The notes: generated from the letters alone by a model not told the origin. A DNA stretch of 64,000 nt from Candidatus Oxydemutatoraceae bacterium (GCA_965219575.1 OZ244779.1:1409928-1473927); one strand, 5' to 3'. Counted from the stretch's first letter, positions 9,721-53,737 are shown. Numbers and translations are program-made.

Positions 9721-9868
9721 TCCATACTCCTGAATAGTTAATCAAATTATTGCTAGGGATAATCCTGCAATGCCACTATAATGATGCGAAAATATGACAG
9801 GAATATGTAAAAATGGAATTATCGAGCGATATTCGTTTAGCTTTCGGCACCGACTTTTAATCGAACAA

Positions 9869-12052
9869 ATGAAAAACAAAGACATAGCAAATTATGCGAT
9901 GATTTTTGCATGGCTATTACGAGGCAAACAATGGTATCTTTACCCGATGATATTGCTATTATTATCGGCGTGTGGCGATGCGGTGTGGAATAATCCGTAC
10001 GGAGGTTCGATCGACAATACCTATTATTCCAGTTTTACCGAACGTCCGAAGCATTTAGATCCGGCGCGCGCATACAGTAGTAACGAGTATGCGATTCTGG
10101 GGCAAATATACGAACCGGTGTTGCAATACCATTATCTAAAGCGACCCTATCAGCTCATCCCGCTAACCGCCAACCGGATGCCGACCCTATCTTATGTGGA
10201 TACAGAAGGGTATCGCACCGATGAGAAGAACGCAGCCTATATCGTCTACGATATAGAAATAAACCCGGGTATTTTGTTCCAGCCGCATCCGGCGTTTGTA
10301 GCTTCCGGCGACGATTATTTATATCATGCGATGTCCGACGAACAGTTGACCGAGATAGAACGACTGGCGGACTTTCGCGAACAAGCGACGCGTGAATTAA
10401 AAGCCGCCGACTATGTTTATCAGATCAAACGACTGGCGGACCCGGCGCGGTATTCTCCGATTGCAAGTATTTTGGCACAATACATTGTCGGCTTTCCGGA
10501 GTTCAGGGCGCGCATCGAGAGCGTGCGTAAAGACCTTGCGCGTGAGGCGTGGTTGGATTTGCGCAACGAGCAAATGGCAGGCGTAGAACTCATCGACGAT
10601 TATCGGTATAGGATCACGGTGAGCAAGGATTATCCGCAATTCATCTATTGGCTTGCGATGCCGTTTTTTGCGGCGATGCCGTGGGAGGCCGATCGCTTTT
10701 ATCATCAGCCGGGGCTCAAAGAACGCAATATCACGCTGGATTGGTTTCCTATCGGTACGGGGGCTTTTATGATGACCGAGAATAACCCTAACTTGCGGAT
10801 GACTCTGGTACGCAACCCCAATTTTAGAGCCGACTATTATCCCGCCGAAGGCGATATCGGGGACCGAGAACAAGGGCTTTTGGTTGACGCAAATAAACAA
10901 CTGCCGTTTATCGATAAAGTGATCTATAGCTTGGAGAAAGAGAGTATTCCCTATTGGAATAAATTTTTACAGGGCTATTACGACAGTTCGGGCATCAGCA
11001 CCGATAGCTTTGATCAAGCGATACAAATAGGCAAGCAGGGCGAACTGGATTTGACCGATTTTATGATCGATAAGGGTATCCGATTGTCGGTTTCTTACCA
11101 GCTATCCACTTATTACACAGGGTTCAATATGCTGGATCCGATTGTCGGTGGTAGCGACGAGCGAGCTAGAAAGTTGCGGCAAGCACTCTCTATCGCCCTC
11201 AATATGGAAGAGTATATTTCTATTTTTCTAAACGGGCGTGGCTTATCGGCGCAAGGTCCGTTACCACCCGGTATGTTCGGCAATGTATCGGGTGCCGAAG
11301 GCATCAACCCTTATGTCTACGATTGGGTAGACGGGCAAGCTCGGCGCAAACCCATATCCGAAGCCAAGCGTTTATTGGCCGAAGCCGGTTACAGAGACGG
11401 CATAGATCAACAAACCCAAAAACCGTTGGTGATAAATTTCGATACGGTCGGAACGGGACCCGACGCCAAAGCATTTCTGAATTGGACGCGCAAGCAATTC
11501 GATAATCTAGGCGTGCAGTTGGTGATACGCAACACCGACTATAATCGTTTTCAAGACAAGCTGAACAAAGGCACCACACAAGTGTTTCGCTTGGGATGGA
11601 ATGCCGATTATCCCGACCCGGAGAATTTTTTCTTTTTGTTTTACGGTCCCAACGGGAAAGTTTCCAACCAAGGCGCAAACTATTCCAACTATCAAAACTC
11701 ACGCTTCGACGAGATGTTCGAGCGGATGCGCAGTTTGCCGAACGGTGCCGAGAGACAAGTGTTGATAGACGAAATGCTGGAGCTCCTACGCTACGATGCA
11801 CCGTGGATTTGGGGCATCCATCCCAAATCTTTCGCACTGTACCACGACTGGTTGGGCAACGTAAAACCGAATCAGTTGGCGCATAATAGACTAAAATACT
11901 TCAACATCAATAGCGAGCTGCGCGCACAAAACCAAGTACAATGGAATCAACCGGAACTCGAACCGATTTTAATTTTCTTGTTGCTACTATTTATTGCTGT
12001 TTTGCCTGCCTTTTATATCTATAAAAAACGACAACGAGCGGTTGCGTTATGA
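9869..12052 (+). CDS. yejA: ABC transporter substrate-binding protein, family 5 (YejA-like), lipoprotein signal plus C-terminal TM anchor
   Basis: SBP_bac_5-like length and motifs. Lipobox LLLSAC after a candidate start (9869 or 9947; the track ORF starts at 9794). First gene of a four-gene yejABEF-like operon linked by ATGA overlaps. Confidence 0.7.
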   Translation: MKNKDIANYAMIFAWLLRGKQWYLYPMILLLLSACGDAVWNNPYGGSIDNTYYSSFTERPKHLDPARAYSSNEYAILGQIYEPVLQYHYLKRPYQLIPLTANRMPTLSYVDTEGYRTDEKNAAYIVYDIEINPGILFQPHPAFVASGDDYLYHAMSDEQLTEIERLADFREQATRELKAADYVYQIKRLADPARYSPIASILAQYIVGFPEFRARIESVRKDLAREAWLDLRNEQMAGVELIDDYRYRITVSKDYPQFIYWLAMPFFAAMPWEADRFYHQPGLKERNITLDWFPIGTGAFMMTENNPNLRMTLVRNPNFRADYYPAEGDIGDREQGLLVDANKQLPFIDKVIYSLEKESIPYWNKFLQGYYDSSGISTDSFDQAIQIGKQGELDLTDFMIDKGIRLSVSYQLSTYYTGFNMLDPIVGGSDERARKLRQALSIALNMEEYISIFLNGRGLSAQGPLPPGMFGNVSGAEGINPYVYDWVDGQARRKPISEAKRLLAEAGYRDGIDQQTQKPLVINFDTVGTGPDAKAFLNWTRKQFDNLGVQLVIRNTDYNRFQDKLNKGTTQVFRLGWNADYPDPENFFFLFYGPNGKVSNQGANYSNYQNSRFDEMFERMRSLPNGAERQVLIDEMLELLRYDAPWIWGIHPKSFALYHDWLGNVKPNQLAHNRLKYFNINSELRAQNQVQWNQPELEPILIFLLLLFIAVLPAFYIYKKRQRAVAL

Positions 12053-16466: not shown

Positions 16467-17219
16467 ATGCTTAACTTTAAGAAAAAACGTATCGAAAGAA
16501 CACCATCGCAAAACTCTTTATTATTGGACGAGTGGTATCAAAGCGATGTCAATAGAAAGCTATGGATGGAAACCGAACCGGCACTACAGCCTTGGTTAGA
16601 GAGAACGATGGGCTATTACGCAGCGCATATTGCATCCTTTCAAGTCGGTGACGAGTTATTATCGTGTAGTCGCGTGCGCACTAAGTGTATTGTCAATGCA
16701 ACTAGGTACTCCGACACCGGTATACTCGCCGATTTCACATCTCTACCGCTCGATACCGAAAGCATGGATTTGATCATCGCACACCATATATTTGAATTCA
16801 TCTCGCAGCCGCACGAGTTTTTGCGCGAGGTTGATAGAGTGCTAATCTCCGAAGGGTTACTTATAATAATCTGTTTTAATCCGATAAGTTATCAAGGTTT
16901 ATTCAAACTGTTTCAATTACACGGACGAGCCAATCCACCGTGGTGTGGCAACTTCTATACGCCTTTTCGAGTAAAAGACTGGCTCTCGGTGCTGGGCTTT
17001 AAGGTAAAAGAATTACGCTATTTTGCTCCCCCGCTGATCCGATACAAAAACCACCCCGGTTATGCAGGCAAAATCTCGCGAGGTTGCAAGCGTTTTATGA
17101 AATGGGGTAGCTCTTTTTATGCAATACTCGCAGTAAAACAAGTCTCGCGTTTGATACCGCTAGGTCCGGTATGGAAAGACCGAATAATAAAGCCCGAAGC
17201 ACCGCAACCGACCGCTTGA
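16467..17219 (+). CDS. Class I SAM-dependent methyltransferase (YafS-like)
   Basis: Methyltransferase-like core. Its position directly upstream of rnhA mirrors yafS in enterobacteria. Confidence 0.5.
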   Translation: MLNFKKKRIERTPSQNSLLLDEWYQSDVNRKLWMETEPALQPWLERTMGYYAAHIASFQVGDELLSCSRVRTKCIVNATRYSDTGILADFTSLPLDTESMDLIIAHHIFEFISQPHEFLREVDRVLISEGLLIIICFNPISYQGLFKLFQLHGRANPPWCGNFYTPFRVKDWLSVLGFKVKELRYFAPPLIRYKNHPGYAGKISRGCKRFMKWGSSFYAILAVKQVSRLIPLGPVWKDRIIKPEAPQPTA

Positions 17220-17229
17220 GGAAGCTGTC

Positions 17230-17685
17230 ATGCCGGACATGATGCCTATCTATGTCTATACCGACGGCGCATGTCGAGGCAACCCCGGGCCGGGCGGTTG
17301 GGCAGCGATATTGATCTACGGAACACATGAAAAAGTACTCTGCGGCGGAGAACATCACACCACGAATAACCGCATGGAACTCACCGCCGCAATACGAGGC
17401 CTCTCGGCAATCAAGCCGGAAAAACTCAAAAGTAAGAAACATATCGTCTATCTCATAACCGACTCGCTCTACCTCAAAAACGGCATAGAGATATGGATTG
17501 CCAACTGGAAGCAAAACAACTGGCGAACGATAAGCAAAAAGGTAGTCAAAAACCAAGACCTATGGAAAGAGCTAGACCACCTGAACACACTAATGCAAAT
17601 CAACTGGCAATGGGTCAGAGGCCACAGCGGCTATGCAGAGAACGAACGCGCCGACCAACTCGCAAAAGATAGCATCCCCTCGTAG
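17230..17685 (+). CDS. rnhA: Ribonuclease HI
   Basis: IYTDGACRGNPGPGGWAAIL...TNNRMELTAAI is the canonical RNase H catalytic motif set. Confidence 0.92.
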   Translation: MPDMMPIYVYTDGACRGNPGPGGWAAILIYGTHEKVLCGGEHHTTNNRMELTAAIRGLSAIKPEKLKSKKHIVYLITDSLYLKNGIEIWIANWKQNNWRTISKKVVKNQDLWKELDHLNTLMQINWQWVRGHSGYAENERADQLAKDSIPS

Positions 17686-17790
17686 AGCAACATTTCGTGT
17701 AGAGGCGTGGTCGCAGCATATCTGCACCAGTCAATTCCCATTATTGTAGAGGCAGCAGGCTTCACCTGACCGGGTGGTCGCTGCATGGGA

Positions 17791-17992
17791 CTGTTGAAAA
17801 AATACTGTTCTGCAAAACCGTAACCGCTTGCGCCGCATAATTATCCAACCCACCTGTAGGGGCGGACTAACATGTCCGCCCGTAACGCGTTGTGCCTACA
17901 CGATTTATACATTCATCCATCCAATTTATGGAAACCAAAACAAAATGGCGCAAGTGATTAGATTCGTACGATGCCGCACTTTTTCAACAGCC
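17791..17992. repeat. MITE-like element, family A, preceded by a family B hairpin repeat (17695..17790)
   Basis: Same terminal inverted repeats and CGGACTAACATGTCCGCC palindrome. Confidence 0.8.
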
Positions 17993-18152
17993 CGTAAGGG
18001 TCTGCACAGTTGCAACAAGTAGCGACTCAACCACCTCATATTACCCCAACATACCGTTTATCGGATATTTACTACTGTTCATCCATTTGTCTAAAAACAC
18101 CTCAAGTATTCGCTCAAACTACAGGTTTTAACTAAAACTTGCAGGAGATTTC

Positions 18153-19076
18153 ATGGCAAAAAAAACTCAATCTAAATACTTAGCACTGACAGAAGACATT
18201 TCCTTCAAGCGATACTTCTCAAGCAGTAAGCAATTACTATTCTCGCTACTTAAGAGCTTCCTGCCGATCTCCGATCGTGCCTCGGGTATGGTGATACTCA
18301 ACCCCGACATACTAGACACCGCATCCGCTACCACCAATCAACCCGGTCAATCGGACGATAAGCTACATCTGCAAGACAGTGCTATCCCACCGGACACACC
18401 GGATGGCAAACAAGTAGTGCTAGACCTCCATGTCGAATTAAATAGCGGTGAGCATGTGGACATAGAGATGCAAAGCCACCCGCATAAAGATTTCTTGTTT
18501 AGAATGTTAGCCTACTGGGTGCGGTTGCATAATCAATCCTTAAAGCGCGGACAGAAGACCAAAGAAAATAAACCGACCTACTCACTAATATTTACCAAGT
18601 TCAGCGTGCTTAGCAAAGCCGAGAGAGACTATATCAAAAAGGCGAACATCAATTTCGAAGGCTATCAGGATAGAGCACTTTACTGGGGGTTTAAGATGTT
18701 TTTCGTGGAATTGAATAGGTTCAATAAGAGCCACCTTGAACTAGTTGATATGGCAGACAGGTGGTGCTATATTATGAAGCATTCGGCGGACTTGACAGCC
18801 GAACAAGTAGCGTATTTATCACAACATGGAGAGACGAAGATGGCATTAGAACATTTAGAGGAAGTATCCAAAGAAAAGAGGGAGTATTGGAAGGCTGCAT
18901 CTCGAGAGAGACGCGAGTGGGAGCATGAGATGAGAAAGCAAGGACTAATAGAAGAAGGCATAGAAAAAGGACATCGAGAAATCGCTTTGAACATGTTGCA
19001 AAAGGGTTTAGAGGTCTCGTTGATTTCCGAAGTCACAGGTTTATCCGTTGCCGAGATTAAACAGCTAAAAAGATAG
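18153..19076 (+). CDS. Rpn-family recombination-promoting nuclease / putative transposase (PD-(D/E)XK, Transposase_31-like) with DUF4351-like C-terminus
   Basis: N-terminal YhgA/Rpn-like core (DLHVELNSGEHVDIEMQSH). The C-terminal tail ...EIALNMLQKGLEVSLISEVTGLSVAEIKQLK is shared with the truncated paralog at 20753. Confidence 0.6.
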   Translation: MAKKTQSKYLALTEDISFKRYFSSSKQLLFSLLKSFLPISDRASGMVILNPDILDTASATTNQPGQSDDKLHLQDSAIPPDTPDGKQVVLDLHVELNSGEHVDIEMQSHPHKDFLFRMLAYWVRLHNQSLKRGQKTKENKPTYSLIFTKFSVLSKAERDYIKKANINFEGYQDRALYWGFKMFFVELNRFNKSHLELVDMADRWCYIMKHSADLTAEQVAYLSQHGETKMALEHLEEVSKEKREYWKAASRERREWEHEMRKQGLIEEGIEKGHREIALNMLQKGLEVSLISEVTGLSVAEIKQLKR

Positions 19077-19162
19077 AACTGAACCACAAGTACGATACTG
19101 GTACATTCCTCTCCCGTAGAGGGGTGTCAGGCATAGCCTGACGGGGTGGTCGCTAAAGAGGG

Positions 19163-19206
19163 CTGTTGAAAAAGTATTTCATAAAATGTAGGGGCGGACT
19201 AGCATG
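19163..19206. repeat. Left part of a family A MITE interrupted by IS110
   Basis: CTGTTGAAAAAGTATTTCATAAAATGTAGGGGCGGACTAGCATG, then the sequence diverges. Confidence 0.75.
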
Positions 19207-20531
19207 ATGCCTTATTAAAAATCAAGTCATTTTATTCATTTTTTATCTCCGTTTTATATTTTTCCTGAGTATCGATTTAGGACGCAGATGCGCAACAATA
19301 ATTCGGGTCAAACGGCTTCCTGTATCTGAGTATCCCGTAAATAATACGTGCCAGCTTATGGGCGCAAGCAACAATAATCTGCTTTTTAGTTAACTCCGGA
19401 CGCCGCCGACTTAATTGGTCGGCAAAGGCACGGATGATTGGGTTATGAACCCGTGCCGAGAGTGCCGCCATAAACAGCAGGGTGCGCAGTTCGGCATCGC
19501 CCATTTTAGAGATATGCGCCTTCGCCTCGTAGTTGCCGGACTGCCGGCGCCTTGGGTTGAGACCGACATAGACTGCGAATTGCTCTGCGTTATCAAATGT
19601 CTTATCATTGAAAACAGCACACAGGGCAATCGCTGTCTGAGTGCCGATGCCGGTAATGGAACACAGCAACTGCTCAAGCTCTGCGAGTTGCTCGTCTTGA
19701 GCGATAATTTGCTCCATTTCGGCATCCTGCTTAGCAATCTGTTTGTCAAAGTATCTCAGGTTCTCAGCTGCTCGTTTTTTTTGCCTTGCATCGCATAAGG
19801 TTTTCATACAATTACTTAACCCGGTATGATCTTTGACTAATTGCCTGCGCACTTTTCGTGCATCTCTCAAGGCGAGTGCAGTCGGCGACGGCATTTGCCA
19901 ATCTTTACCGTCAACAGCGAATGCGAACAGTGCGATGAGCCGCGCATCATCGCGATCGGTTTTATTGTGCATACCAAGCGATTGGCGGAAGCTGGCAACC
20001 TGCGCCGGTTTGACAATCCTAATCGGATGTTGCGCCAGATAGCCGGCTTTGCACAGGGCGAACTCAAAACCGCCGGTGGCTTCAACACAGATGCGACAGT
20101 GCGGTGCGCAGTGTTTGCTAGCCCAAGCTAACAGCTGCTTAATGCCTTTAGCATCATTGCTAAATTGTGCCTCGGCAAAACTATTATCGGTGAATAATAG
20201 AGCGGCCTCTAAAGTGTCTTTAGAGACATCCACGCCGATTATGGCAGGGTGTTTGTTTTCCATAATAATATCCTCCATTATGGTTGTTCAGTGAATAAAA
20301 TACTCGGTAGCCAGTTCAGGAAAGTATGACTACGCCGCCCACACAGGTAAATACGAGATCTAAAGTCTCAAGCTGCCTTCCGAGCTCTATAGTCATAGCG
20401 CCGGAGGAGTGCTTTTCATGCTAACAGGCTTTAATGCCTCGTCCGTCCTGCGGCGTGTCTCCTCCGACTTCCTAGGTACTGCAACTACCTAAGCATTTAT
20501 CTTATATAAATAAGCTAGGGTTTAATATACC
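19207..20531 (-). mobile_element. IS110-family insertion sequence (~1.3 kb) inserted in a MITE palindrome
   Basis: Carries a single DEDD-transposase ORF. The flanks reconstitute an intact family A palindrome (…GGCGGACTAGCATG | IS | TCCGCCCGTAACGCG…). Boundaries are ±3 bp. No terminal inverted repeats, as expected for IS110. Confidence 0.7.
19277..20278 (-). CDS. IS110-family transposase (DEDD)
   Basis: N-terminal IIGVDVSKDTLEAALL (DEDD_Tnp_IS110) and a C-terminal Transposase_20-like domain, in 333 aa. Confidence 0.85.
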   Translation of the reverse strand: MEDIIMENKHPAIIGVDVSKDTLEAALLFTDNSFAEAQFSNDAKGIKQLLAWASKHCAPHCRICVEATGGFEFALCKAGYLAQHPIRIVKPAQVASFRQSLGMHNKTDRDDARLIALFAFAVDGKDWQMPSPTALALRDARKVRRQLVKDHTGLSNCMKTLCDARQKKRAAENLRYFDKQIAKQDAEMEQIIAQDEQLAELEQLLCSITGIGTQTAIALCAVFNDKTFDNAEQFAVYVGLNPRRRQSGNYEAKAHISKMGDAELRTLLFMAALSARVHNPIIRAFADQLSRRRPELTKKQIIVACAHKLARIIYGILRYRKPFDPNYCCASAS

Positions 20532-29224: not shown

Positions 29225-32200
29225 ATGCCGAAACATACCGAATACGCTTTTGAGACTGCGATTGAAACCGCGCTAACCGGTTCCGGTGGCTATGAGAAGC
29301 GTAGCCCCGATGCCTTTGATGAAACACTTGCGCTGTTCCCCGACGATGTTTGCGGTTTTCTCAAAGACAGCCAAGCTACAAAATGGAGATCACTTGAAAT
29401 GTTGCTTGGAGAGAAAACCAATGCAACCGTGTTGGAAGACTTGTCGAAGGAATTGGAACTCAAGGGTACGCTTCACATTCTACGCCACGGCTTCAAGTGC
29501 TACGGCAAAACATTCCGCATGGCTTGGTTCCAACCGAACACTGCTATGAATCCCGAAGCTGCCCAGAACTATGCTCGGAACCGGCTGACCGTTACTCGGC
29601 AAGTTGCTTTTACTTCGGTTCTGGGACATGCGGACGGTAAAAATCGCCGTTGCATTATTGATGTTGCACTTTCCGTTAACGGCATTCCCGTCGTCACTGC
29701 CGAACTTAAGAACCCGCTAACCGGGCAATGCGCCGCTGATGCAAAACACCAATATATGAATGAGCGAAGTGGGAATGATTTGCTCTTTGATTTCAAAAAA
29801 CGAGCACTGGTTCATTTCGCAGTGGATGCGGACGAAGTATGGATGACAACTCGCTTAGAGGGCAAGGAAACCTCTTTCCTACCTTTCAACCGGGGCAATA
29901 ATCATGCAGCAGGCAATCCGCCGGTTGAAGGAAACCACAAGACACATTATCTATGGGATGAGGTACTGCAGGCTGATAGCCTATTAGATATCTTGCAACG
30001 TTTCATGCACCTTGAGGTCAAGGAGAAGTATGTCAGACTCTACGAGGGTATGCAAACCGATAAGAGAGAGACGATGATATTCCCACGCTATCACCAACTT
30101 GATGTGGTTCGGAAACTGGTCGCACATGCAAAGGTTCATGGTGCAGGGCGGAATTATCTAATCCAACATTCGGCTGGTTCGGGTAAATCAAACTCAATTG
30201 CATGGCTTGCACATCGATTGGCTAGCCTGCATGACGAGCATGACGAAAAAGTGTTTCATTCCGTTGTCGTAGTGACCGACCGGCGCGTATTAGATCAACA
30301 GCTACAAGAAACGATATACCAATTTGAACACAAGACCGGCGTAGTGGAGAAGATTGACGAAAACACACAACAACTCGCCCGCGCCTTATCCCACGGTACG
30401 CCTATCGTCATTACCACCATACAGAAATTCCCTTTCATCTCGCGTGCGCTGACAACCCTTGAGAATAAGGGAGACGACATAAAAATCAATACTGCAGGTA
30501 AACGCTTTGCCGTCATCGTTGATGAAGCACACTCATCTCAGAGCGGAGAAACTGCGGCTACTCTTAGAGGTATGTTGAACAAGGAGGGAATCGAGGCTGC
30601 CATTGCCGCCCAACTTTCCGAAGAGGAAGATAGCGACCTCTCCGATGATGCAAAGGCAGCGATACTACGCGATGCACTGAAGCGGAGACGCCAGCCTAAT
30701 ATCAGTTTTTTTGCTTTTACAGCCACACCCAAATTTAAGACCAAAGCCTTGTTTGACGAACCCGGTCCGTCCGGTGCATCTCCGTTTCACGAGTACACCA
30801 TGCGGCAAGCCATTGAGGAAGGTTTCATCATGGATGTGCTTCAAAACTATACCACCTATAAACGTTTCTTTGGTCTAATCAAACAGATTGAGAGTGATCC
30901 CGATGTGCCTCGCAGAGAGGCTGCAAAGGCTCTCATGCGCTATCAAGAGCTTCATCCTGTCAATATAGAGCAACTCATCTCGGTGATTGTTGAGCATTTT
31001 TGGCTTAAAGTGAAAAACGAGATCGGCGGACGCGCAAAGGCTATGGTAGTCACAAACTCTCGCCTCGCTGCCGTAAAATACAAACTTGCCTTTGATCGCT
31101 ATATTCAAGACCGAGAATATCCCGGCATTCATTCTCTGGTAGCTTTCTCAGGCACGGTTTCGGATCCGGACATTCCCGGATCGTCGTATACCGAAGTAGC
31201 AATGAACGGTGGCATTGCTGAAACCGAGTTGCCGGATGCCTTCGCAGGAAACGATTATCAAGTTCTTTTAGTTGCAGAAAAGTATCAGACCGGATTTGAT
31301 CAACCCTTATTGCAGACAATGTATGTGGTTAAGAAGTTGGCAGGTGTCCAAGCGGTTCAGACTCTCTCAAGGCTCAACCGCGTCACACCCGGTAAATCGC
31401 GTATCTTCGTTCTGGATTTCGCTAACGAAGAAGAAGACATCTACGAAGCATTCAAACCTTATTATGAGACGACACCTATCGGAAAGAATGCCGAACCGCA
31501 TCGACTTTCCGAACTGCAGCATCGTCTGCTTGGATGGGCTATATTCACGCAAGCCGATGTATATGCATTCGCCGAAGTTTGGTATCGTGGTAAGAACCAT
31601 TCGGTTAGCGATCATCCTCAAATAAACGCTATTCTTGATGCTGTTGTCCAACGCTTCAAGAGTCGCAAGGAAGAAGAACAAGAACAGTTTTTTGGACAGT
31701 TGACGGCTTATAGAGGTCTCTACGCTTTCCTATCACAAATCATCCCTTATGCCGATACCGATCTTGAGCAGCTTTACACCTTCGTGAGAAATCTCTTGAT
31801 GAAACTGCCGCCGATTGATGGCAAAGCCTTTGCTCTAGATGACAAAGTTGCATTGCAATACTTTCGAATGCAGCAAATATCCGAGAATTCTATTAAGCTG
31901 GCAGAGGGTGTGGCGGAACCCTTGAAAGGACCGACCGATGTCGGCACCGGTCGCACTAAAGATCAAGAGGTGACACTTTCAAGTTTGATCGACCGCCTCA
32001 ATGAACGTTTTGGCACGAACTTTACTATGGCAGATCAGTTGTTCTTCGATCAGATACAGACTTCGGCAGAGAACAACCAGAATATTGTTGAAGCAGTGCA
32101 TGCTAATAATTTTGCAGACTTTGTTTCGTATCTAGACACCGCTCTAAACGATCTATTTATTAAGAGAAGGGAGGGTAACGAAGAGATATTTTCTAAGATT

Positions 32201-32287
32201 ATGTCGGACTCCGAATTCCGTTCAATCGTACATAAACATCTTGCGCAAGAGATTTTTAATCGGGTTCGCGAAAAACAATCCTCCTGA
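29225..32287 (+). CDS. hsdR: Type I restriction enzyme R subunit
   Basis: HsdR_N nuclease region, SF2 helicase motifs (QHSAGSGKSN, VVVTDRRVLDQQ, DEAH-like IVDEAHSSQ) and a C-terminal domain, in 1020 aa. Confidence 0.9.
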   Translation: MPKHTEYAFETAIETALTGSGGYEKRSPDAFDETLALFPDDVCGFLKDSQATKWRSLEMLLGEKTNATVLEDLSKELELKGTLHILRHGFKCYGKTFRMAWFQPNTAMNPEAAQNYARNRLTVTRQVAFTSVLGHADGKNRRCIIDVALSVNGIPVVTAELKNPLTGQCAADAKHQYMNERSGNDLLFDFKKRALVHFAVDADEVWMTTRLEGKETSFLPFNRGNNHAAGNPPVEGNHKTHYLWDEVLQADSLLDILQRFMHLEVKEKYVRLYEGMQTDKRETMIFPRYHQLDVVRKLVAHAKVHGAGRNYLIQHSAGSGKSNSIAWLAHRLASLHDEHDEKVFHSVVVVTDRRVLDQQLQETIYQFEHKTGVVEKIDENTQQLARALSHGTPIVITTIQKFPFISRALTTLENKGDDIKINTAGKRFAVIVDEAHSSQSGETAATLRGMLNKEGIEAAIAAQLSEEEDSDLSDDAKAAILRDALKRRRQPNISFFAFTATPKFKTKALFDEPGPSGASPFHEYTMRQAIEEGFIMDVLQNYTTYKRFFGLIKQIESDPDVPRREAAKALMRYQELHPVNIEQLISVIVEHFWLKVKNEIGGRAKAMVVTNSRLAAVKYKLAFDRYIQDREYPGIHSLVAFSGTVSDPDIPGSSYTEVAMNGGIAETELPDAFAGNDYQVLLVAEKYQTGFDQPLLQTMYVVKKLAGVQAVQTLSRLNRVTPGKSRIFVLDFANEEEDIYEAFKPYYETTPIGKNAEPHRLSELQHRLLGWAIFTQADVYAFAEVWYRGKNHSVSDHPQINAILDAVVQRFKSRKEEEQEQFFGQLTAYRGLYAFLSQIIPYADTDLEQLYTFVRNLLMKLPPIDGKAFALDDKVALQYFRMQQISENSIKLAEGVAEPLKGPTDVGTGRTKDQEVTLSSLIDRLNERFGTNFTMADQLFFDQIQTSAENNQNIVEAVHANNFADFVSYLDTALNDLFIKRREGNEEIFSKIMSDSEFRSIVHKHLAQEIFNRVREKQSS

Positions 32288-32508
32288 TATTTAAGTATTA
32301 CTGTGCCGAATGGCACGGCTGTTGCGTCCGTCATTATTCCTTTTCTTTGGAGGAGTGGCAGGCGCAGCCTGACAGGGTGGTTACAATACTACGCGCCACT
32401 CGATTTGTAGTTTTGCAAACCGAATGATTTATACTATCAAGCACATAGGATAGCTTTACATGCTTACCATAAACCACAACCGACAACGCAATTAAATTCA
32501 AGGAGGCT

Positions 32509-33378
32509 TTGATGTTGAAAAATAAAATTGAATCTATGAAATCTGATTGGCACAAAAAATATAAGTCATGGATTCTACGGAAAACAAAATTTAAATCTAT
32601 AAAGCGTTGGTGGTGCGAAAATATCAAACCCTATACACTACTAGAATTGACTCTAAAATATCGAAAAATTTCTCTGGTTTTGGCAGGTACTTTTGGAATA
32701 GTGTTAGCGTGCTATGTGTATCAGTTTTTTTCCAATCAAGTTGATATCAATAAGACTGCCTTGCATGGTAGTTTAACTATTTTAGCCTTAGGCTTGCCTA
32801 CCTTTTTTATACTTTGGTTATTTAGAACCCATGATGTTCAAGAAAATATAAATAATAGCACCTTTTTTGAATGTGCGAGAATGCTGACAGAAAAATATCC
32901 AGAAAAGAACATAGAAGAGAAATTTCCAATACTAGCTGATGAAACAGGTATTCCTCCTCATATATTGGAAAAATCTTTACCAACAAAAATAGCACTTGAG
33001 CAACTCGCATATCTCAGAAGAGAAACTGGTTTTGACAAAGAAAGAATAGAACTCGTTACTCAGCAACTTAAATTGGGTAAAATGTATTTAGTAGGTGCTC
33101 GCTTAAGCGGTTTGAATTTAACTAGAGCCGTTTTATATGATACCCGGTTAAGTTTTGCCGATTTGAGTTATGCTAATTTGACTAGCTCTCTTTTGGATAA
33201 AGCTGATCTAGGAGGTGCTAAACTAATGGGGGCTAATCTGACAAATACGGATACTAGAGAAACCATATTGAGTGGTGCTAAGTATGATAAAAACACTACT
33301 TTCAACTCTTGGCTTGATACCGAAGAAAAGCGTATTAAAGCAGGCATGGTTCCTTATGAACCCGAAGAACAAAAATAG
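32509..33378 (+). CDS. Membrane-anchored pentapeptide-repeat protein
   Basis: N-terminal TM helices, then pentapeptide repeats (ARLSGLNLTRAVLYDTRLSFADLSYANLTSSLLDKADLGGAKLMGANL). Confidence 0.65.
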   Translation: MMLKNKIESMKSDWHKKYKSWILRKTKFKSIKRWWCENIKPYTLLELTLKYRKISLVLAGTFGIVLACYVYQFFSNQVDINKTALHGSLTILALGLPTFFILWLFRTHDVQENINNSTFFECARMLTEKYPEKNIEEKFPILADETGIPPHILEKSLPTKIALEQLAYLRRETGFDKERIELVTQQLKLGKMYLVGARLSGLNLTRAVLYDTRLSFADLSYANLTSSLLDKADLGGAKLMGANLTNTDTRETILSGAKYDKNTTFNSWLDTEEKRIKAGMVPYEPEEQK

Positions 33379-33478
33379 AAATTTTGCCTGCTAATTTATA
33401 TAATGCTCATTATTCAATTTGAAAAAGAGTATAATTTTGCCTCCTAAAAAACCAATGACCGTATCAGCGAAAGCCTAA

Positions 33479-33673
33479 ATGATTAAAGCAAGATTCCAAA
33501 ACATAGGTCCGATTAAAGATGCCGAATTAGAGCTAGGAGATCTAACCATTATTGCCGGGCAAAATAATACCGGCAAAACCTATTTGGTTTATACACTTTA
33601 TAGCCCTTGGGATTTTCAGAAAGACAATTTACTTAACCTTTTGTATAGGCCTGAAGACCACTCTGAAAAATAA
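33479..33673 (+). pseudogene. N-terminal fragment (64 aa) of an AAA/ABC-type defence ATPase (Walker A only)
   Basis: IGPIKDAELELGDLTIIAGQNNTGKTYL is the N-terminus typical of AAA_15/AAA_21-type ATPases (OLD, GajA or PtuA-like). The ORF stops after 64 aa, and its stop overlaps the next start (TAATG). Confidence 0.5.
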
Positions 33674-34590
33674 TGAATTTTCCCAGAACTTTGTATTACC
33701 GCAGGCGTGTGCTACTGGCAATTCTGGCTCGCGGGAAAGGTCGCACGGAGAAAATCCGCCTGCAAAAGTTACTCTTTCTATTTACCCAACATCAAGAGAA
33801 GCCGATTTATCATTTCTTACCGTATAAGTACGGGTGTTATTCATTTCAAGCTAACGAAGATGCTCGGATACTCGCCGATTATTATCGGTTGTTGGCAATA
33901 ACGAAAAACGACAAAGCATACATTGTAAATAGTAAGAAAATTAAAGGGATGATCAACTTGAAACCTGAGGATGAAGAGTGTCTAGACGCTATATTTGATG
34001 CGTATGGAAAACTTTCCAATGATGCCCTTATCTACGAGGTATATAGAAAGTATCCGTACTACGCAATCAATAGCGAGCTTCTGGACAAACCGAAATTTAA
34101 ACCGTTGCGCCGTTATATATCTAAAGAAAAACCACAGATCAAAAATAAACATTTAACGCTTTACACCATAGGTTACGAAGGAAAAAGCATAGAACAATAT
34201 CTGAGAGGTTTAATCGATAACGGCATCTCTGCACTGATAGATGTGAGGTATAATCCTTTCAGCATGAAAAAAGGCTTTTCCAAAAAACAACTACAAGATA
34301 TAACCGGCAGGTTCGGAATAGCTTATATCCATATCCCGGAATTAGGCATTAAGGGAAATTTGCGAAAGAATATAAAACCTCGCACCGAATATAATCAACT
34401 GTTCAATCAATACCGAAAAACCTTAAGCCAAACCGATAAAGAGCAAGCATTGCAGGATGTAGTGAAAATCATTCGGCAACACCGAAGAGTTGCTATCACT
34501 TGCTTTGAGCAAGATCACACATGCTGTCACCGCAATCATGTGGCAGAGGCAATAGCCGACAAACACAAAATAATCATTCGGCACTTGTAA
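33673..34590 (+). CDS. Panacea (DUF4065)-like N-terminal domain fused to a DUF488 C-terminal domain
   Basis: N-terminal half: KIRLQKLLFLFTQ...PIYHFLPYKYGCYSF resembles the Panacea/SocA-like antitoxin domain. C-terminal half: LYTIGYEGKSIEQYLRGLIDNGISALIDVRYNPFSMKKGF...IAYIHIPELGI...ITCFEQDHTCCHRNHVAEAI is the DUF488 (YeaO-like) signature. Confidence 0.55.
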   Translation: MNFPRTLYYRRRVLLAILARGKGRTEKIRLQKLLFLFTQHQEKPIYHFLPYKYGCYSFQANEDARILADYYRLLAITKNDKAYIVNSKKIKGMINLKPEDEECLDAIFDAYGKLSNDALIYEVYRKYPYYAINSELLDKPKFKPLRRYISKEKPQIKNKHLTLYTIGYEGKSIEQYLRGLIDNGISALIDVRYNPFSMKKGFSKKQLQDITGRFGIAYIHIPELGIKGNLRKNIKPRTEYNQLFNQYRKTLSQTDKEQALQDVVKIIRQHRRVAITCFEQDHTCCHRNHVAEAIADKHKIIIRHL

Positions 34591-34595
34591 GATAT

Positions 34596-35085
34596 GAGGT
34601 TTTTGAAAAAGTATGGGGTGTTGAAAAAATGAGGCTGCTGAAAAAGTATTTCATACAATGTAGGGGCGGACTTGCATGTCCGCCCGTAACGCGTTGGCCG
34701 GCACGATTTATACATTCATTCAACCGATTTATGGAAACCAAAACCAAATGGCGTAAGCGGTTGAGTTTGTACAGAACGGTACTTAAGGGCAGACACACAG
34801 GTCTGCCCCTACGACTTTGTGGTTATCATAATTATGTGGCGCAAGCGGTTGGATTTATGCAGTGCCAATACTTTTTCAACAGTCACACGATACAACCAGC
34901 CCATGGAAAGGCTTTACATTTTGTACTATGTACTAAGATTTCGCACAATGTTACGCCGATTGACCTACCGGCTCAATCGGCGGCTCTATTCTGCCCCTAC
35001 GGCTCGGCGGTTTGCGTAAATCCACGGCACAGGCGGTTCTGTTCGTGCAAAACATTATTTTTCTAACAGCTCCAACATTGATACA
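34596..35085. repeat. Repeat block: family A MITE (degenerate left end) plus a family C repeat
   Basis: …GTAGGGGCGGACTTGCATGTCCGCCCGTAACGCG… then GCACAATGTTACGCCGATTGACCTACCGGCTCAATCGGCGG (family C). Fills the gap to dnaQ. Confidence 0.75.
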
Positions 35086-35097
35086 CAGGATGCGCTA

Positions 35098-35781
35098 ATG
35101 AGACAGATTGCATTGGATACCGAGACGACCGGGCTTGAGGTCAGGGATGGGCATCGGATTTTGGAGATAGGGTGTGTTGAGATTATAGACCGCGGTATCA
35201 GCGAGCGGACTTTTTATTCTAAGGTGAATCCCAAGCGTGAGGTGAGCGAAGGTGCGCGACGGGTGCACGGTTATACTTGGGAGATGCTCAAGGGGAGTCC
35301 GCTGTTTGGCAGTGTATGCGACGAGTTTTTGAAATTCGCTCAGGGTAGCGAGGTGCTGATACATAATGCGCCGTTTGATTTGGGTTTTCTGGATGCCGAG
35401 TTGGCGCGTCTAAATCGTGGCACTTTTATACAGGAGACGGGTTGCACCATCATTGACACAGTGGAACTTGCTAAGAAAGTGCATGTCGGTTCGTCTTATT
35501 CTTTGAATGCGCTTAGCGATCACTATCAGATTGATAGAAGTCATCGCGAGTTGCACGGTGCGTTGATAGATGCGGATTTATTGGCGCAGGTTTATTTAGC
35601 TATGACGAGCGGGCAGACGAGTATATCCTTCGCCGGTGAACCGCAAGTTGATAGGCATGAAGTTGTTGCCGCCGACGAGAAAGAGGAGGTTTTGTCCGAC
35701 AAGGGCTTGATAGTGATTAAGGCAACCGAGGACGAATTGAATCGCCACGAACAGTTTTTAGCGGCAAAGTTTGCGAAATAG
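35098..35781 (+). CDS. dnaQ: DNA polymerase III epsilon subunit (3'-5' exonuclease)
   Basis: Exo I motif IALDTETTGL, Exo II LIHNAPFDLGFL and Exo III HGALIDADLLAQVY. Confidence 0.88.
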   Translation: MRQIALDTETTGLEVRDGHRILEIGCVEIIDRGISERTFYSKVNPKREVSEGARRVHGYTWEMLKGSPLFGSVCDEFLKFAQGSEVLIHNAPFDLGFLDAELARLNRGTFIQETGCTIIDTVELAKKVHVGSSYSLNALSDHYQIDRSHRELHGALIDADLLAQVYLAMTSGQTSISFAGEPQVDRHEVVAADEKEEVLSDKGLIVIKATEDELNRHEQFLAAKFAK

Positions 35782-35783
35782 TC

Positions 35784-36290
35784 GTAGGAGGGGAATGGGC
35801 AGCACCATGTTTGTGTTGAAAAAATATTGTTCCGCAAAACCGTAACTGCTTCGCGCCATTAAGTTTACGATAACCACCGAGTCGTAGGGGCAGACCTGTG
35901 TGTCTGCCCAAAACGATACCGCTCTGTACAAACTCAACCGCTTGCGCCATTTGGTTTTGGTTTCCATAAATCGGGTGAATGAATGTATAAATCGTGCATG
36001 CGCAACGCGTTACGGGCGGACATGCTAGTCCGCCCCTACGGCGGTTTGTAAATATTCACGGCGCAAGCGGTTGCAGTTGTGCAAAAACAGTGCTTTTCAA
36101 CTTACGGGCGGACATGCTAGTCCGCCCCTACGGCGGTTTGTAAATATTCACGGCGCAAGCGGTTGCAGTTGTGCAAAAACAGTGCTTTTTCAACAGCCCC
36201 ACGCCAAGCCTCTACATTTCGTAGCTTACATCGTGGTTCAGCACAATGTTACGCCACTTGCCCAACTGGAGCAAGTGGCGGTTCCATTAT
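35784..36290. repeat. Repeat block: family B fragment, a family A MITE with an internal ~88-bp tandem duplication, and a family C remnant
   Basis: TTACGGGCGGACATGCTAGTCCGCCCCTACGGCGGTTTGTAAATATTCACGGCGCAAGCGGTTGCAGTTGTGCAAAAACAGTGCTTTT occurs twice in tandem (about 36030-36200). Confidence 0.75.
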
Positions 36291-38644: not shown

Positions 38645-41600
38645 ATGAAATTAAAACCTATATTCGTAGCACAATTTATTTTACTTGCAGTTCTGCCATG
38701 TCAGTCTGCGCTTGGGCAAGTACCCTCGGAGAATCCCGGTATCACTCTGCAAAAGGGGATTACGATTGAAGGCTCGGCAAACGAAGGCGAGGAATTGACT
38801 TTAAGTCTCCCCGACGATGCGATTGCCGGTGGCAGCGGGAATAGCGAAAACTATTCTTATCGGTGGGAATATCGACCGAGCGACCGGTCGCAGCTGTTGA
38901 ATCCGAATTTGCAACTGTCGGATCCCAACACCCGAACTTTGACTGTGCGCATCCCTACAGATTTCATTGCGCGTGATTATAACCAAAGCGATGTGATTTT
39001 CACTGTGACGGTCGGCGAAGACGGCTCTACGGCAAGCACCGAGAGCATAGTGACGATTATCAAGCGGAACAACTTTGTTCCCACCCTTGATGTGAATCTG
39101 AAACTGAATTCAAATATATCGGGTACGACCGCCTCTATAACCGCCGTTGTAGATAATATCTCGGATTCGGACGGCGACGGCGAGTTCACATACTCGTGGC
39201 AATCTCTAGCTTTAGGCGACACGCAATGGCGTGGTGTCAAAATGGAAACCACCACGAGAACACTATCCGCTTACACGGTACCGGAAGGCACCACCCCGAC
39301 TACCCGCTATCGCGTGGAAATAAGCTATACCGATGCGCAGGGGCATGCGGTTACCGAACAATTCGGAACCTACAGAACCGATGTGGACATAGACGACGAC
39401 GGATTGATAGAGATTTATTACCTTGAGGATTTAGACGCAATTCGCTATCAAGTGAACGGCAGCGGCTATCAACCGGTTCCCTCCGATGATATAGACCTTA
39501 ATAACTCGGGTTGCAACGAAGATGGTGATGGCACTTGTAACGGATATGAAATCGCCAGGCATTTGGATTTCGGCAACGATGCACACTATCAAGACTTAAG
39601 CAATAAAGCGACTTGGACTGAAGGAGCAGGGTGGTCCCCGATAGATAGTTTAGCTACGGCATTGGAAGGTAACGGCAACACAATTTCTGGTTTGCGTATC
39701 GTGCGTAATCAGGGCAACCAGGGTTTATTTGCGCAGTTGGGAGGATCATCGGGAATAATCCGCAATCTTGGTTTGCTCAAAGTGAATATCAATATTATGA
39801 GTAGTGGTATAGCAGGTGGGTTTGCAGGTAGATTGGGTGGCCGTATTATCAGAAATAGTTATGTCAAAGGTACTATAGTAGGAAACCAAGAGATAGGTGG
39901 TTTTGCAGGCGATGGCTTAGGTCAAATAATAAATAGCTATGCGAATGTAAATATTGAAGGGAGATTTAGTGGTGGATTATATGGTGAAGGTGATGCCGGG
40001 ATTACTTCCAGTTATGTAACAGGATCTGTCACCGGACCGTCGGTAGGTGCGATAGTGTCGGAGAGTAATAGCTTTATTGCGAATAGCTACGCAGCAAATA
40101 ATCTAGGAAATATAAAAGATAATAATCAAACCGGTATTTCCAATAGTTACGCCCGAGTACCAGATCGGCACAATGAACTTAAAGAACCCACCGCACCCGG
40201 TACTTCCGACCCCGAATTATATATAGGATGGCGTACCAACAGGTGGGATTTCGGCACATCCGAGCAATTCCCGATTCTAAAATATGTGGAGGATTGCTCA
40301 AACGACCCACAAACCCAAAGAACCGACCCACCGCAATGCGGCACATTCCTGCCGGACCAAAACGACGGTTTGAGAGACTTGGAAATAATAAGCGAGGTTA
40401 TTAAACTGGATAAAGTTTTTGCCTCCGAAATCACCAACTATGATGTAAGTTTTAATGATGATACACCGAACTTAACATTGAGATTAAAGGCTTACGAGAG
40501 CGACTCGCAAATCAGTGTCCGCAGACACGGAGACAGTACGGATTACTTTGCCGGGATGCGTGATACCCCCGATGTCGGCAACGATATTTCCCTGACGGGC
40601 ACAGAGCAAACAACCGTGACGATTACGGTGAGAGAAGTCTTTCCTGCCACCGAGACCGAATATGTACTTACTTTGATAAATGAGACGCTGATAGTTTCCG
40701 GAGAAATCGGCATTACGGGAGATGTAATGATTACCGAGAATGTAATATCCACCACCGAAGGCAGATCTTTTACTTTAGAAGCACCTCAAGTTAGTGGTGG
40801 TATCGACATGCCCGACTACGAATGGACGGTGACGCCGGAAAATACATCACAGTTGCTGAACCCGAATTTGCAACTATCGGATACCACCACCCGAACTTTG
40901 ACCGTGACCATACCTAATGATTTTATAGGGCGCGCTTCTACGAGTAGCAATGTGAGATTCAAGTTAACGGTGAATAACGATGTTTCCGGCAGTAGCCGAA
41001 ACATCGTAGTGAGGATAGATAAAACGAATAACGATAGTTCGGAACTGAATCCGACATGGGTAGAGGACGGTATTTCATTAGATGCCGTGATAGATATTGA
41101 AGATATTGAAGATTTGGACGGCAATCCCGGCGAGAATGATATCAGCTATCAATGGCAGCGTAAAGCCATAAACAATGATGTATGGATGAATATTCCCGAT
41201 GATGCAACGTCTGAAACTTATACGATACCACAACTGGAGTATCCCATTGCCTTTAACTATCGCGTCGGTGTGCGCTACACGGACCGGCAAGGCTATCTAA
41301 GTGATATCGCTTATAGCGACCCCACACCTGCAGATTATCGACCGGACATAGACACAGACGATGACGGATTGATAGAGGTTTATTACCTTGAGGATTTGGA
41401 TGCAATCCGTTATCAATTAGACGGTAGCGGCTATAGAACGAGCACTCAAGCAACGGTGATAAAAGCGGGTTGTGGCTATAACGATAATGGTAGCATGGTG
41501 TGCAGAGGCTACGAGTTGATAAGAGATTTAGACTTCGGCGTTGATAACAGCTATAGCTCGACGGCTAATCGGGTTATTTGGCAGCCGAATGACGGCAAAA

Positions 41601-52153: not shown

Positions 52154-52278
52154 AATTGCAGTATATCAAATATTTATGAATGTATGATTTTTCAATAACC
52201 CTATATTATAATATCCACATTTTGCCAAACCTATTAAAAGAATTCTCGGATAGGAAACCGAATAAGAGAGGAATCATT

Positions 52279-53694: not shown

Positions 53695-53737
53695 AAAAAA
53701 CTTCTCAGGCAGTAAACCAAATAAGAGAGAAATCATT

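Follow-up and report, generated by a model that had tools for sequence, protein, structure and literature searches.

The island and its boundaries

The stretch of DNA analysed here, hereafter the window, comprises 64,000 nucleotides of the genome of a Candidatus Oxydemutatoraceae bacterium (GCA_965219575.1, OZ244779.1:1409928-1473927) and contains, between the housekeeping genes rnhA and dnaQ, an island in which known and candidate defence genes are found together with repeats and gene remnants. The left boundary is formed by rnhA, encoding RNase HI (17230-17685, + strand; Pfam RNase_H, 1.7e-42; 97% identical to its counterpart in Candidatus Porisulfidus OZ244052.1), and the right boundary by dnaQ, encoding the epsilon subunit of DNA polymerase III (35098-35781, +; RNase_T, 2e-27), whose homologues are named DNA polymerase III subunit epsilon. 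Between the rnhA stop codon (17685) and the dnaQ start codon (35098) lie 17,412 bp, and upstream of rnhA lies a conserved left-flank gene for an S-adenosylmethionine-dependent methyltransferase (16467-17219, +; Pfam Methyltransf_11). The gene map is based on a listing of open reading frames (ORFs) and on profile searches with Pfam, PADLOC and NCBIfam, and it bears out, almost item by item, the genes and positions listed in a preliminary description of this DNA. The best matches to the locus are metagenome-assembled genomes of Candidatus Porisulfidus, a genus reported from sponge metagenomes (PMC12988363).

Elsewhere among the proteobacteria the two boundary genes are normally immediate neighbours, as the preliminary description had held for many gammaproteobacteria. 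When the RnhA protein was searched against one genome per species, 80 loci were returned, in 45 of which dnaQ lies downstream of rnhA on the same strand, the gap being 18-172 bp in 44 of the 45; a metagenome scan with DnaQ gave 72 loci with both genes, 70 of them with a gap of at most 330 bp. This second scan returned no Porisulfidus relatives (best match 50% identity) and was used as a control for adjacency. When both samples are pooled, 114 of the 117 proteobacterial loci outside the lineage have gaps of 12-330 bp, and a methyltransferase gene stands upstream of rnhA in most gammaproteobacterial loci, as it does in the window, so that the trio methyltransferase-rnhA-dnaQ is the ancestral order. 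The three exceptions have gaps of 4.3 kb (L068), 4.5 kb (L153) and 1.2 kb (L120), and the inserts of the two that were looked at, L068 and L153, each consist of a resistance-nodulation-division (RND) efflux pair. Only these three of the 117 loci carry an insert; one of 17 kb, as in the window, is an exception, and outside the lineage the site does not behave as a hotspot.

The hallmarks of a discrete mobile element were looked for within the island and at its edges. The tRNA scan of the island found none and the Rfam scan found no family, no integrase appeared among the island ORFs or in the profile searches, no attachment (att) repeats flank the island, and the only flanking direct repeats belong to a family of miniature inverted-repeat transposable elements (MITEs) that is spread over the whole window. 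Promoter and terminator scans of both island edges remained at or below shuffle expectation, and a literature search on rnhA/dnaQ genomic islands yielded nothing relevant.

Restriction-modification genes and candidate defence modules

The Type I restriction-modification (R-M) operon is composed of the methyltransferase gene hsdM (25138-27318, +; HsdM_N and N6_Mtase), the specificity subunit gene hsdS (27315-28628, +; Methylase_S), a translationally coupled fourth gene, designated orfX (28625-29221, +), and a full-length restriction subunit gene, hsdR (29225-32287, +; HSDR_N, ResIII, SWI2_SNF2 and a T1R_D3-like domain). HsdM, HsdS and HsdR have 726, 437 and 1020 residues, compared with 725-728, 419-462 and 1022-1029 in their homologues; hsdS encodes two target-recognition domains, the expected domains are all present, and the ratio of nonsynonymous to synonymous divergence (dN/dS, from Nei-Gojobori distances for genes common to the window and each relative) is 0.11-0.12. 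The system is complete in gene content, and both restriction and methylation activity are predicted. The amino acid identity to two other Porisulfidus species, here genomes B and D, is 87-88% for hsdM and 88% for hsdR. Residues 472-726 of HsdM constitute a C-terminal extension of 255 residues that matches no family, and the same extension is present in the HsdM proteins of 725-728 residues that belong to orfX-bearing operons of Comamonadaceae and Alkalilimnicola.

At least 756 proteins, about 203 residues long and 62-75% identical across proteobacterial classes, make up the family of the orfX product. In Comamonadaceae and Alkalilimnicola ehrlichii, too, the gene stands between hsdS and hsdR, again with an HsdM of 725-728 residues and with overlapping stop and start codons, and the dN/dS of orfX is 0.27. 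An invariant motif, D89...E106-x-K108 (CDFVIF...CIEFKS), a weak match to the PADLOC profile PD-T4-4_B (1.3e-7) and a profile-profile link found with hhalign to the B partners present in these islands (probability 63%, E 7e-5) are the grounds on which orfX is read as a PD-(D/E)xK nuclease; together they suggest a putative nuclease of this type. No match was obtained when orfX was compared by BLASTP with the B partners in relatives, nor when plasmids were searched with it. The AlphaFold model of the protein has a mean predicted local distance difference test score (pLDDT) of 80.5, and a Foldseek search of the PDB with this model returned nothing below E 0.06; its weak matches were suggestively enriched in PD-(D/E)xK nucleases. 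Sequence searches of the PDB with orfX, TcmP, DUF5131 and the DUF488 protein, the last three of which are described below, gave nothing meaningful.

Upstream of the R-M operon and on the opposite strand lie the genes of a DUF5131 (Gp37/Gp68 family) protein (23094-23849, −; PF07505, 1.1e-105; PADLOC PDC-M30B, 7e-113) and of the three-Cys-motif partner protein TcmP (23834-24880, −; TIGR04474, 2.2e-36; PADLOC PDC-M30A, 1.3e-53). Adjacent and overlapping by 16 nt, the two correspond to the PADLOC candidate defence pair PDC-M30. DUF5131 is well conserved (92-94% amino acid identity to genomes B and D, dN/dS 0.05-0.09); TcmP is fast-evolving and AT-rich, with a dN/dS of 0.28, and a search of phages with TcmP found no match.

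At the right end of the island lies a two-domain protein of 305 residues (33673-34590, +; DUF488, 3.5e-27; PADLOC PDC-M19A, 2.9e-98), a single-gene defence candidate of the type PDC-M19A. Its C-terminal domain is DUF488, and its N-terminal domain resembles the C-terminal part of DarG and, weakly, Panacea. The preliminary description had named the gene a Panacea-DUF488 fusion, a label for which there is a match to Panacea (SocA/PanA, PF13274) that covers only residues 78-126 and stays below the threshold (E 0.0015; 19.8 vs 25.7 bits). With an AlphaFold 2 model of high quality (pLDDT 92.4), the best Foldseek match in the PDB is a chain of 187 residues from the Mycobacterium tuberculosis DarTG complex (7yk3; probability 1.0, E 3.7e-3), which we take to be the C-terminal toxin-binding domain of DarG. 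In agreement with this result, positions 163-240 of the PADLOC DarG profile match residues 9-85 of the protein. In four relatives the protein is 83-93% identical, and its gene adjoins dnaQ or stands one to two genes away from it.

Immediately upstream of the DUF488 gene, an ORF of 64 codons (33479-33673, +) matches positions 2-43 of the ABC ATPase profile PD-T4-4_A (4.6e-16). It is 78% identical to the N-terminus of an intact PD-T4-4_A gene of 464 codons which, together with a partner of 187 residues, occupies the same spot in the nearest relative, genome GA; it is therefore a true remnant, as had been proposed. What is left in the window corresponds to about residues 1-61 of the A protein, and no B gene is adjacent, orfX being part of another operon, so that no intact PD-T4-4 system with A and B is present. 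A PADLOC run, which the preliminary description had recommended as a check, called PDC-M30, PDC-M19A and the PD-T4-4_A remnant. In contigs of relatives (L163:1827-8339 and L166:3713-8644), three to five PD-T4-4_A-like ATPase paralogues that are 56-86% identical to one another stand in tandem, with a B partner for only one or two of them; in L163, a frameshift or stop breaks one copy into parts of 68 and 407 residues.

Two genes of the left part encode YhgA-like PD-(D/E)xK recombination-promoting nucleases (Rpn). The first (18153-19076, +; PDDEXK_2, 1.3e-29; TIGR01784, 6.9e-31) is full length, with PDDEXK_2 spanning residues 70-261 and the TIGR01784 match reaching the C-terminus, and it is 95% identical to its counterpart in GA at the amino acid level. 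The second (20753-21631, +) is truncated: of its nuclease domain the core is missing and the tail is left (PDDEXK_2, E 0.021), and its match to TIGR01784 is confined to positions 174-273 (2e-9). It contains two tandem RpnS-like C-terminal modules made of four-residue repeats (EGRxQGI-type) and is 90% identical to the GA protein, whose gene has an in-frame stop at codon 15. The truncated protein recalls the RpnS antitoxins, and an antitoxin role is putative.

Two further residents are of a different kind. A tetratricopeptide repeat (TPR) protein is encoded at 21884-22966 (+; Pfam TPR_1, 4.7e-52), with a repeat number that varies in relatives (238-503 residues) and a low guanine-cytosine (GC) content that matches that of the other TPR genes of the window. 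Two of these, adjacent at 52180-54445, have 102-nt (34-residue) repeats and a GC content of 0.41-0.44, and they cross-match the island gene at 60-73%. The second resident is a membrane-anchored pentapeptide-repeat protein (32509-33378, +; Pentapeptide, 3.3e-12; two hydrophobic helices in the translation), 34-51% identical to relatives and 43-51% identical to both the 'A' and the 'B' copies found there. Downstream of the island, an ORF of 3299 codons (38645-48544) has counterparts of 3916-5388 residues in relatives, 68-73% identical in nucleotides and with faint Glug and Cadherin-like matches, and looks like the gene of a fast-evolving giant surface protein.

Repeats and the IS110 element

Three composite MITEs are found in the island: a short form at 17791-17990, with termini CTGTTGAAAAA / TTTTTCAACAG and the hairpin GGGCGGAC..GTCCGCCC; an element at 19163-20733 that is split by an insertion sequence; and a long form with two hairpin modules at 34618-34882. 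The preliminary description had counted at least five copies, which holds for the hairpin modules; these five modules, however, form three elements, and the family is not specific to the island, since at least six further copies lie in the window outside it (at least nine copies in 64 kb). The elements measure 200-285 bp, share the termini GGGCTGTTGAAAAAG / CTTTTTCAACAGCCC, are present in multiple copies, and show polymorphism between filled and empty sites, the site reading TAA...TAA when filled (window) and a single TAA when empty (GA). Just downstream of dnaQ, a MITE at 35813-36196 represents an expanded 400-bp form, with two identical tandem sub-modules of 88 nt, 92 nt apart, at 36010-36189. 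An ORF at 34521-35066 was considered as a possible gene and taken as spurious, because it overlaps a MITE and its tblastn matches fall on other MITE copies.

The inserted element, of 1325 bp (19207-20531, −), belongs to the IS110 family: its transposase (19277-20278) contains DEDD_Tnp_IS110 and Transposase_20 and exceeds the NF033542 cut-off (223 vs 140 bits), and it has no terminal inverted repeats. Its insertion point is the loop of a hairpin of the MITE, GGGCGGACTAGCATG / TGTCCGCCC, with ends ATGCC... and ...ATACC and TG at both junctions, and its excision in silico restores a full-length MITE with two extra, duplicated nucleotides. A bridge RNA was not detected by Rfam, and a comparison of the non-coding end of the element with its target gave a single guide-like match of 7 nt (TAGCATG), at the level of chance (about 1.7 expected). 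The whole block formed by the MITE and the IS110 element (19157-20737) is absent from GA.

Furthermore, a second dispersed repeat family is represented at 21631-21793 by the hairpin CCCCTTCTGTGGAGGGG ... CAGCCTGACGGGGTGG, with partial copies at 19076-19126 and 34943-34995. The end of this repeat coincides with the left breakpoint of the segment in which the window differs from GA, and the family also flanks modules in genomes B, C and L166.

The interval in related genomes

The corresponding intervals of relatives were rebuilt from rnhA-anchored loci and from contigs encoding homologues of DnaQ, orfX or the DUF488 protein. At least five different gene contents are found between rnhA and dnaQ in Porisulfidus genomes, and no empty rnhA-dnaQ site was found within the genus among the relatives examined. 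Of the earlier interpretation, it is supported that the interval is an insertion relative to the ancestral adjacency, that it is rich in known or candidate defence genes, and that its content differs between related genomes.

The nearest relative, GA (OZ244052.1), has flanks about 95% identical to those of the window and an interval of 18.8 kb. Its left part contains the full-length and truncated Rpn genes, a third Rpn gene, an RDD protein gene and a pentapeptide gene; its centre is occupied by the Type III genes mod and res, which enclose an ABC-ATPase pair and a multi-ubiquitin/E2/E1-JAB set; and after res follow PD-T4-4_A (464 residues) with its 187-residue partner, the DUF488 gene and dnaQ. 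In the Type III operon (L161:1-6811 with L001:15879-20327), mod and res encode 868 and 936 residues, and the five nested genes comprise an NsnB/PDC-M55A-like ABC ATPase with a partner of 191 residues and a trio of multi-ubiquitin, Prok-E2_E and ThiF-JAB proteins. The Type III form is shared by L164 and L166, the L164 arrangement being 84% identical to that of GA over 9.3 kb.

Genome B has an interval of about 23.5 kb, which starts with a duplicate of the methyltransferase gene and rnhA, followed by genes for an FGE-sulfatase and a KilA-N/BstA-like protein, pentapeptide and TPR genes, DUF5131, TcmP, hsdM, hsdS and hsdR, and continues with a second pentapeptide gene, PD-T4-4_A and its partner, the DUF488 gene and two more genes before dnaQ; its Type I operon is devoid of orfX. 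The two copies of the methyltransferase-rnhA pair (L002:6768-7980 and 9238-10450) are separated by MITE copies, and their products have amino acid identities of 93-94% and 81-83% to those of the window. The interval of genome D, of at least 23 kb, has the backbone of genome B plus orfX and four to five tandem ATPase paralogues. In genome C (OZ241323.1) the interval reaches about 74.5 kb, most of which is filled by a called gene of 16,050 codons (L162:1-9791) that ends 210 bp upstream of dnaQ and has no Pfam match. FGE-sulfatase and KilA-N genes are present in genomes B, C and D.

L165 is more distantly related (DnaQ 71% identical); its interval measures only 2.7 kb and holds nothing other than two pentapeptide genes and a decayed rnhA fragment. 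The latter, a second rnhA copy (L165:8377-8612; residues 51-80 and 101-151), has a pentapeptide gene on either side, so that a unit of rnhA and a pentapeptide gene may have been duplicated in tandem long ago. The pentapeptide family is found in every form of the interval; with its members as the sole occupants here, it is probably the oldest resident rather than defence cargo.

The window-type form is known from a second source, L167, a single contig of 12.1 kb that reproduces the centre of the island at 91-99% identity. L167 and GA come from one assembly, ERZ25070844, with coverages of 3x and 179x, respectively, according to the contig names. The Type I and Type III forms seem to coexist. Another assembly, ERZ25067984, contains at least five distinct Porisulfidus lineages (genomes B, C, D, L164 and L166), each with a different rnhA-dnaQ interval.

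Age and composition of the island

Synonymous divergence (dS) was compared between island genes and flanking core genes. Between the window and genome B, it is 0.48-0.77 for DUF5131, TcmP, hsdM, hsdR and the DUF488 gene, and 0.43-0.84 for the flanking ABC, methyltransferase, rnhA, dnaQ, BaxI and GSDH genes; between the window and genome D, the respective values are 0.44-0.90 and 0.40-0.63; and in comparison with GA, the full-length Rpn gene (0.13) and the DUF488 gene (0.17) stand beside flanking core genes at 0.15-0.23. The genes from DUF5131 through hsdR, plus the DUF488 gene, are syntenic in the two other species, and dN/dS is 0.05-0.28 throughout. Because the island has the dS of its flanks and dN/dS is low, this backbone has diverged together with the core genome and has been maintained by selection: at least three Porisulfidus species descend from an ancestor that already had it, it has been vertically inherited, and it is under purifying selection.

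It was correctly noted beforehand that the TcmP, pentapeptide and DUF488 genes are richer in AT than their surroundings, with GC contents of 0.343, 0.343 and 0.394 vs 0.471 ± 0.023 for 28 genes outside the island; the values for hsdM (0.48) and hsdR (0.47) are native-like. The low values are, however, the same across genomes (0.335-0.343 for TcmP, 0.326-0.366 for pentapeptide genes and 0.388-0.410 for the DUF488 gene), and since they are conserved across species, AT-richness cannot be taken here as a sign of recent arrival.

Remodelling in place

The island has nevertheless changed, and it has done so in place: by MITE insertion, by insertion of the IS110 element into a MITE hairpin, by a 1.8 kb deletion, by a domain swap in hsdS, by tandem duplications and by replacement of the central segment. 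The alignment of the window with GA, at 94-95% identity, covers 16467-19156, 20738-21793 and 33672-34631 and resumes from dnaQ onward; from 21794 to 33476, they have nothing in common but a pentapeptide gene that is 65% identical. At the right edge of this segment, 174 nt of the ATPase gene remain in the window and run, at the junction AATA|ATG, straight into the start codon of the DUF488 gene; the window has lost about 1.8 kb of the GA sequence, that is, the remainder of the ATPase gene and the 187-residue partner. The second target-recognition domain of hsdS (28031-28461) cannot be aligned with that of L167 or genome D, and the sequence on both sides of it is 85-99% identical. Tandem duplications have affected the ATPase genes (one to five copies), the methyltransferase-rnhA pair of genome B, and rnhA with the pentapeptide gene in L165.

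Interpretation

Within 17 kb, the interval unites a Type I R-M system, PDC-M30, PDC-M19A, Rpn and the remnant of PD-T4-4, and about 12 of the 17 kb consist of known or candidate defence genes, as is expected of a defence island. The interval is likely to be a lineage-specific, long-lived and integrase-free defence island, wedged into the ancestral methyltransferase-rnhA-dnaQ trio of the sponge symbiont genus Candidatus Porisulfidus. Such an island may be regarded as a stack of independent immunity modules, namely the Type I R-M system with orfX, the TcmP/DUF5131 pair, the full-length and truncated Rpn, the DUF488 candidate and the stump of PD-T4-4, among which the TPR and membrane pentapeptide proteins would be non-defence residents. 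The central segment may have been swapped by homologous recombination through the conserved flanks and the internal repeats, the alternative forms may be maintained by phage pressure, and the candidate modules would indeed defend against phages.

The preliminary description had called the site a hotspot for the integration of defence cargo. What stands of this is a variable, defence-rich site at which core genes flank different cargo in related genomes; what finds no support is the integration of mobile cargo, as there is neither an integrase, a tRNA, an att site nor an empty site in the close relatives examined, and the backbone, with dS at the core value, is inherited. The hotspot idea was to be given up if related genomes showed the same gene content with native composition, and since only half of this was found, it is modified rather than refuted.

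Several points weigh against a defence island so defined. PDC-M30 and PDC-M19 are candidate systems only; the TPR, pentapeptide, FGE-sulfatase and giant-adhesin genes present at the site in relatives are not defence genes, and the region may be a general flexible island; the comparison covers about eight related assemblies, most of them from two metagenome samples; and with all species about 15% apart, an ancestral possession of both Type I and Type III systems followed by differential loss looks the same as exchange between lineages. The second of these points leads to an alternative in which a host-associated bacterium has here a flexible genomic island of a general kind, carrying symbiosis and surface factors such as TPR, pentapeptide, sulfatase-maturase-like and giant adhesin genes, so that defence genes are one class of passengers and 'defence hotspot' is too narrow a term. 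The TPR and pentapeptide genes of the window, the FGE-sulfatase and KilA-N genes of genomes B, C and D, the gene of 16,050 codons that dominates the interval of genome C, the L165 interval with its pentapeptide genes alone, and the RND efflux pumps that form the rare inserts elsewhere are all in keeping with it. Against this, there is the share of the window interval taken up by defence genes, the alternative form in GA is almost wholly defence, and the KilA-N gene itself matches BstA, so that we regard a general flexible island as unlikely.

A discrete mobile element, be it an integrative island, an integrative conjugative or mobilizable element or a prophage remnant, that entered the site between rnhA and dnaQ in recent times and carried the defence genes in with it would explain the low GC of several genes and the presence of the IS110 element and MITEs, and an orfX-bearing Type I operon of the same kind in Comamonadaceae does adjoin integrases. 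Such an origin is very improbable, however: no integrase, tRNA or flanking direct repeats are found in the island, the low GC is conserved across species, the IS110 element and its MITE are a late local insertion, absent from GA, and the equality of island and core-flank dS in two other species largely refutes it. An assembly or binning chimera of unrelated pieces is hardly conceivable even for a window that appears metagenome-type and repeat-rich and whose exact dnaQ protein is not on record, given that the junctions rnhA-Rpn-truncated Rpn and DUF488 gene-dnaQ also occur in GA, those from truncated Rpn-TPR through hsdR-pentapeptide on the single contig L167, and the pentapeptide-ATPase junction in genomes B and D, which leaves only the deletion junction at about 33651-33672 as unique to the window.

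A more far-reaching reading, which goes beyond a long-lived defence island, joins two proposals: that the Type I and Type III arrangements are deeply diverged alternative immune forms which persist together in a single sponge-associated population, where homologous recombination exchanges them and no mobile-element machinery takes part, and that orfX is a nuclease-like fourth component of a widespread Type I subfamily, derived from a PD-T4-4-type B effector and altering restriction. Taken jointly, they are tentative and somewhat doubtful, though possible.

The locus is of interest as a cleanly resolved case of the integrase-free persistence and diversification of a defence island in a host-associated bacterium with a small genome, with an inherited backbone and with change by local deletion, duplication, IS and MITE insertion, specificity-domain swap and segment replacement. 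It also calls for caution in genome scanning, as low GC and nearby repeats do not here equal recent acquisition. Two testable by-products are orfX, a conserved protein of about 200 residues associated with one Type I R-M subfamily, and the DUF488 protein, which is widespread, has two domains and is similar in its N-terminal half to the domain with which DarG binds its toxin.

Comparison with known systems

Elements of the IS110 family, such as IS621 and IS1111, target repeated palindromes, including sites of the repetitive extragenic palindrome (REP) type. The element found in the island is like these REP-targeting relatives in its DEDD transposase, in the lack of terminal inverted repeats, in the 2-nt core at both junctions and in its position in the loop of a repeated hairpin; it is unlike them in that the target hairpin belongs to a MITE.

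Rpn proteins function as toxin-antitoxin phage defence, with the antitoxin RpnS encoded within the rpn gene (Zhong et al. 2023, PMC10327210). The island resembles this arrangement in having a full-length Rpn and a copy that keeps only the C-terminal modules of four-residue repeats, and it differs in that a truncated gene of its own, with two such modules in tandem, supplies the antitoxin-like part.

Defence genes embedded in R-M operons, for example PrrC in the EcoprrI hsdMSR operon, are known from work on 'guilt by embedding' (10.1101/2024.01.29.577857). The position of orfX between hsdS and hsdR, with overlapping stops and starts, follows this pattern, as do the five genes nested between mod and res in GA. 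In contrast to the embedded genes described there, orfX encodes a lone protein of about 200 residues without the usual ABC-ATPase partner, and it stays with one HsdM/HsdR subfamily across alpha-, beta- and gammaproteobacteria; because it is kept in this way across classes, it appears more like a fixed operon component than a passenger.

PD-T4-4 is a system made of a PD-(D/E)xK nuclease and an NTPase (10.1101/2025.07.10.664194). In likeness to PD-T4-4/PDC-M47, the stump in the window is the N-terminus of PD-T4-4_A, and relatives have an intact A gene with a B partner of 187-189 residues that shares the D...ExK motif. The differences are that the system of the window is destroyed and its B gene gone, and that relatives have one to five tandem A paralogues.

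Finally, defence islands, and defence hotspots flanked by core genes, are said to have been described by Makarova and colleagues in 2011 and in hotspot surveys of E. coli and Pseudomonas aeruginosa. The island between rnhA and dnaQ resembles them in that unrelated immunity systems are clustered between housekeeping genes, with variable content and remnants of lost systems. It differs in having no integrase or other mobile hallmarks and no empty site within the genus, in that most of its content has co-diverged with the core genome, and in the lineage-specific nature of the site. It is thus a member of this known class, ordinary though well resolved.

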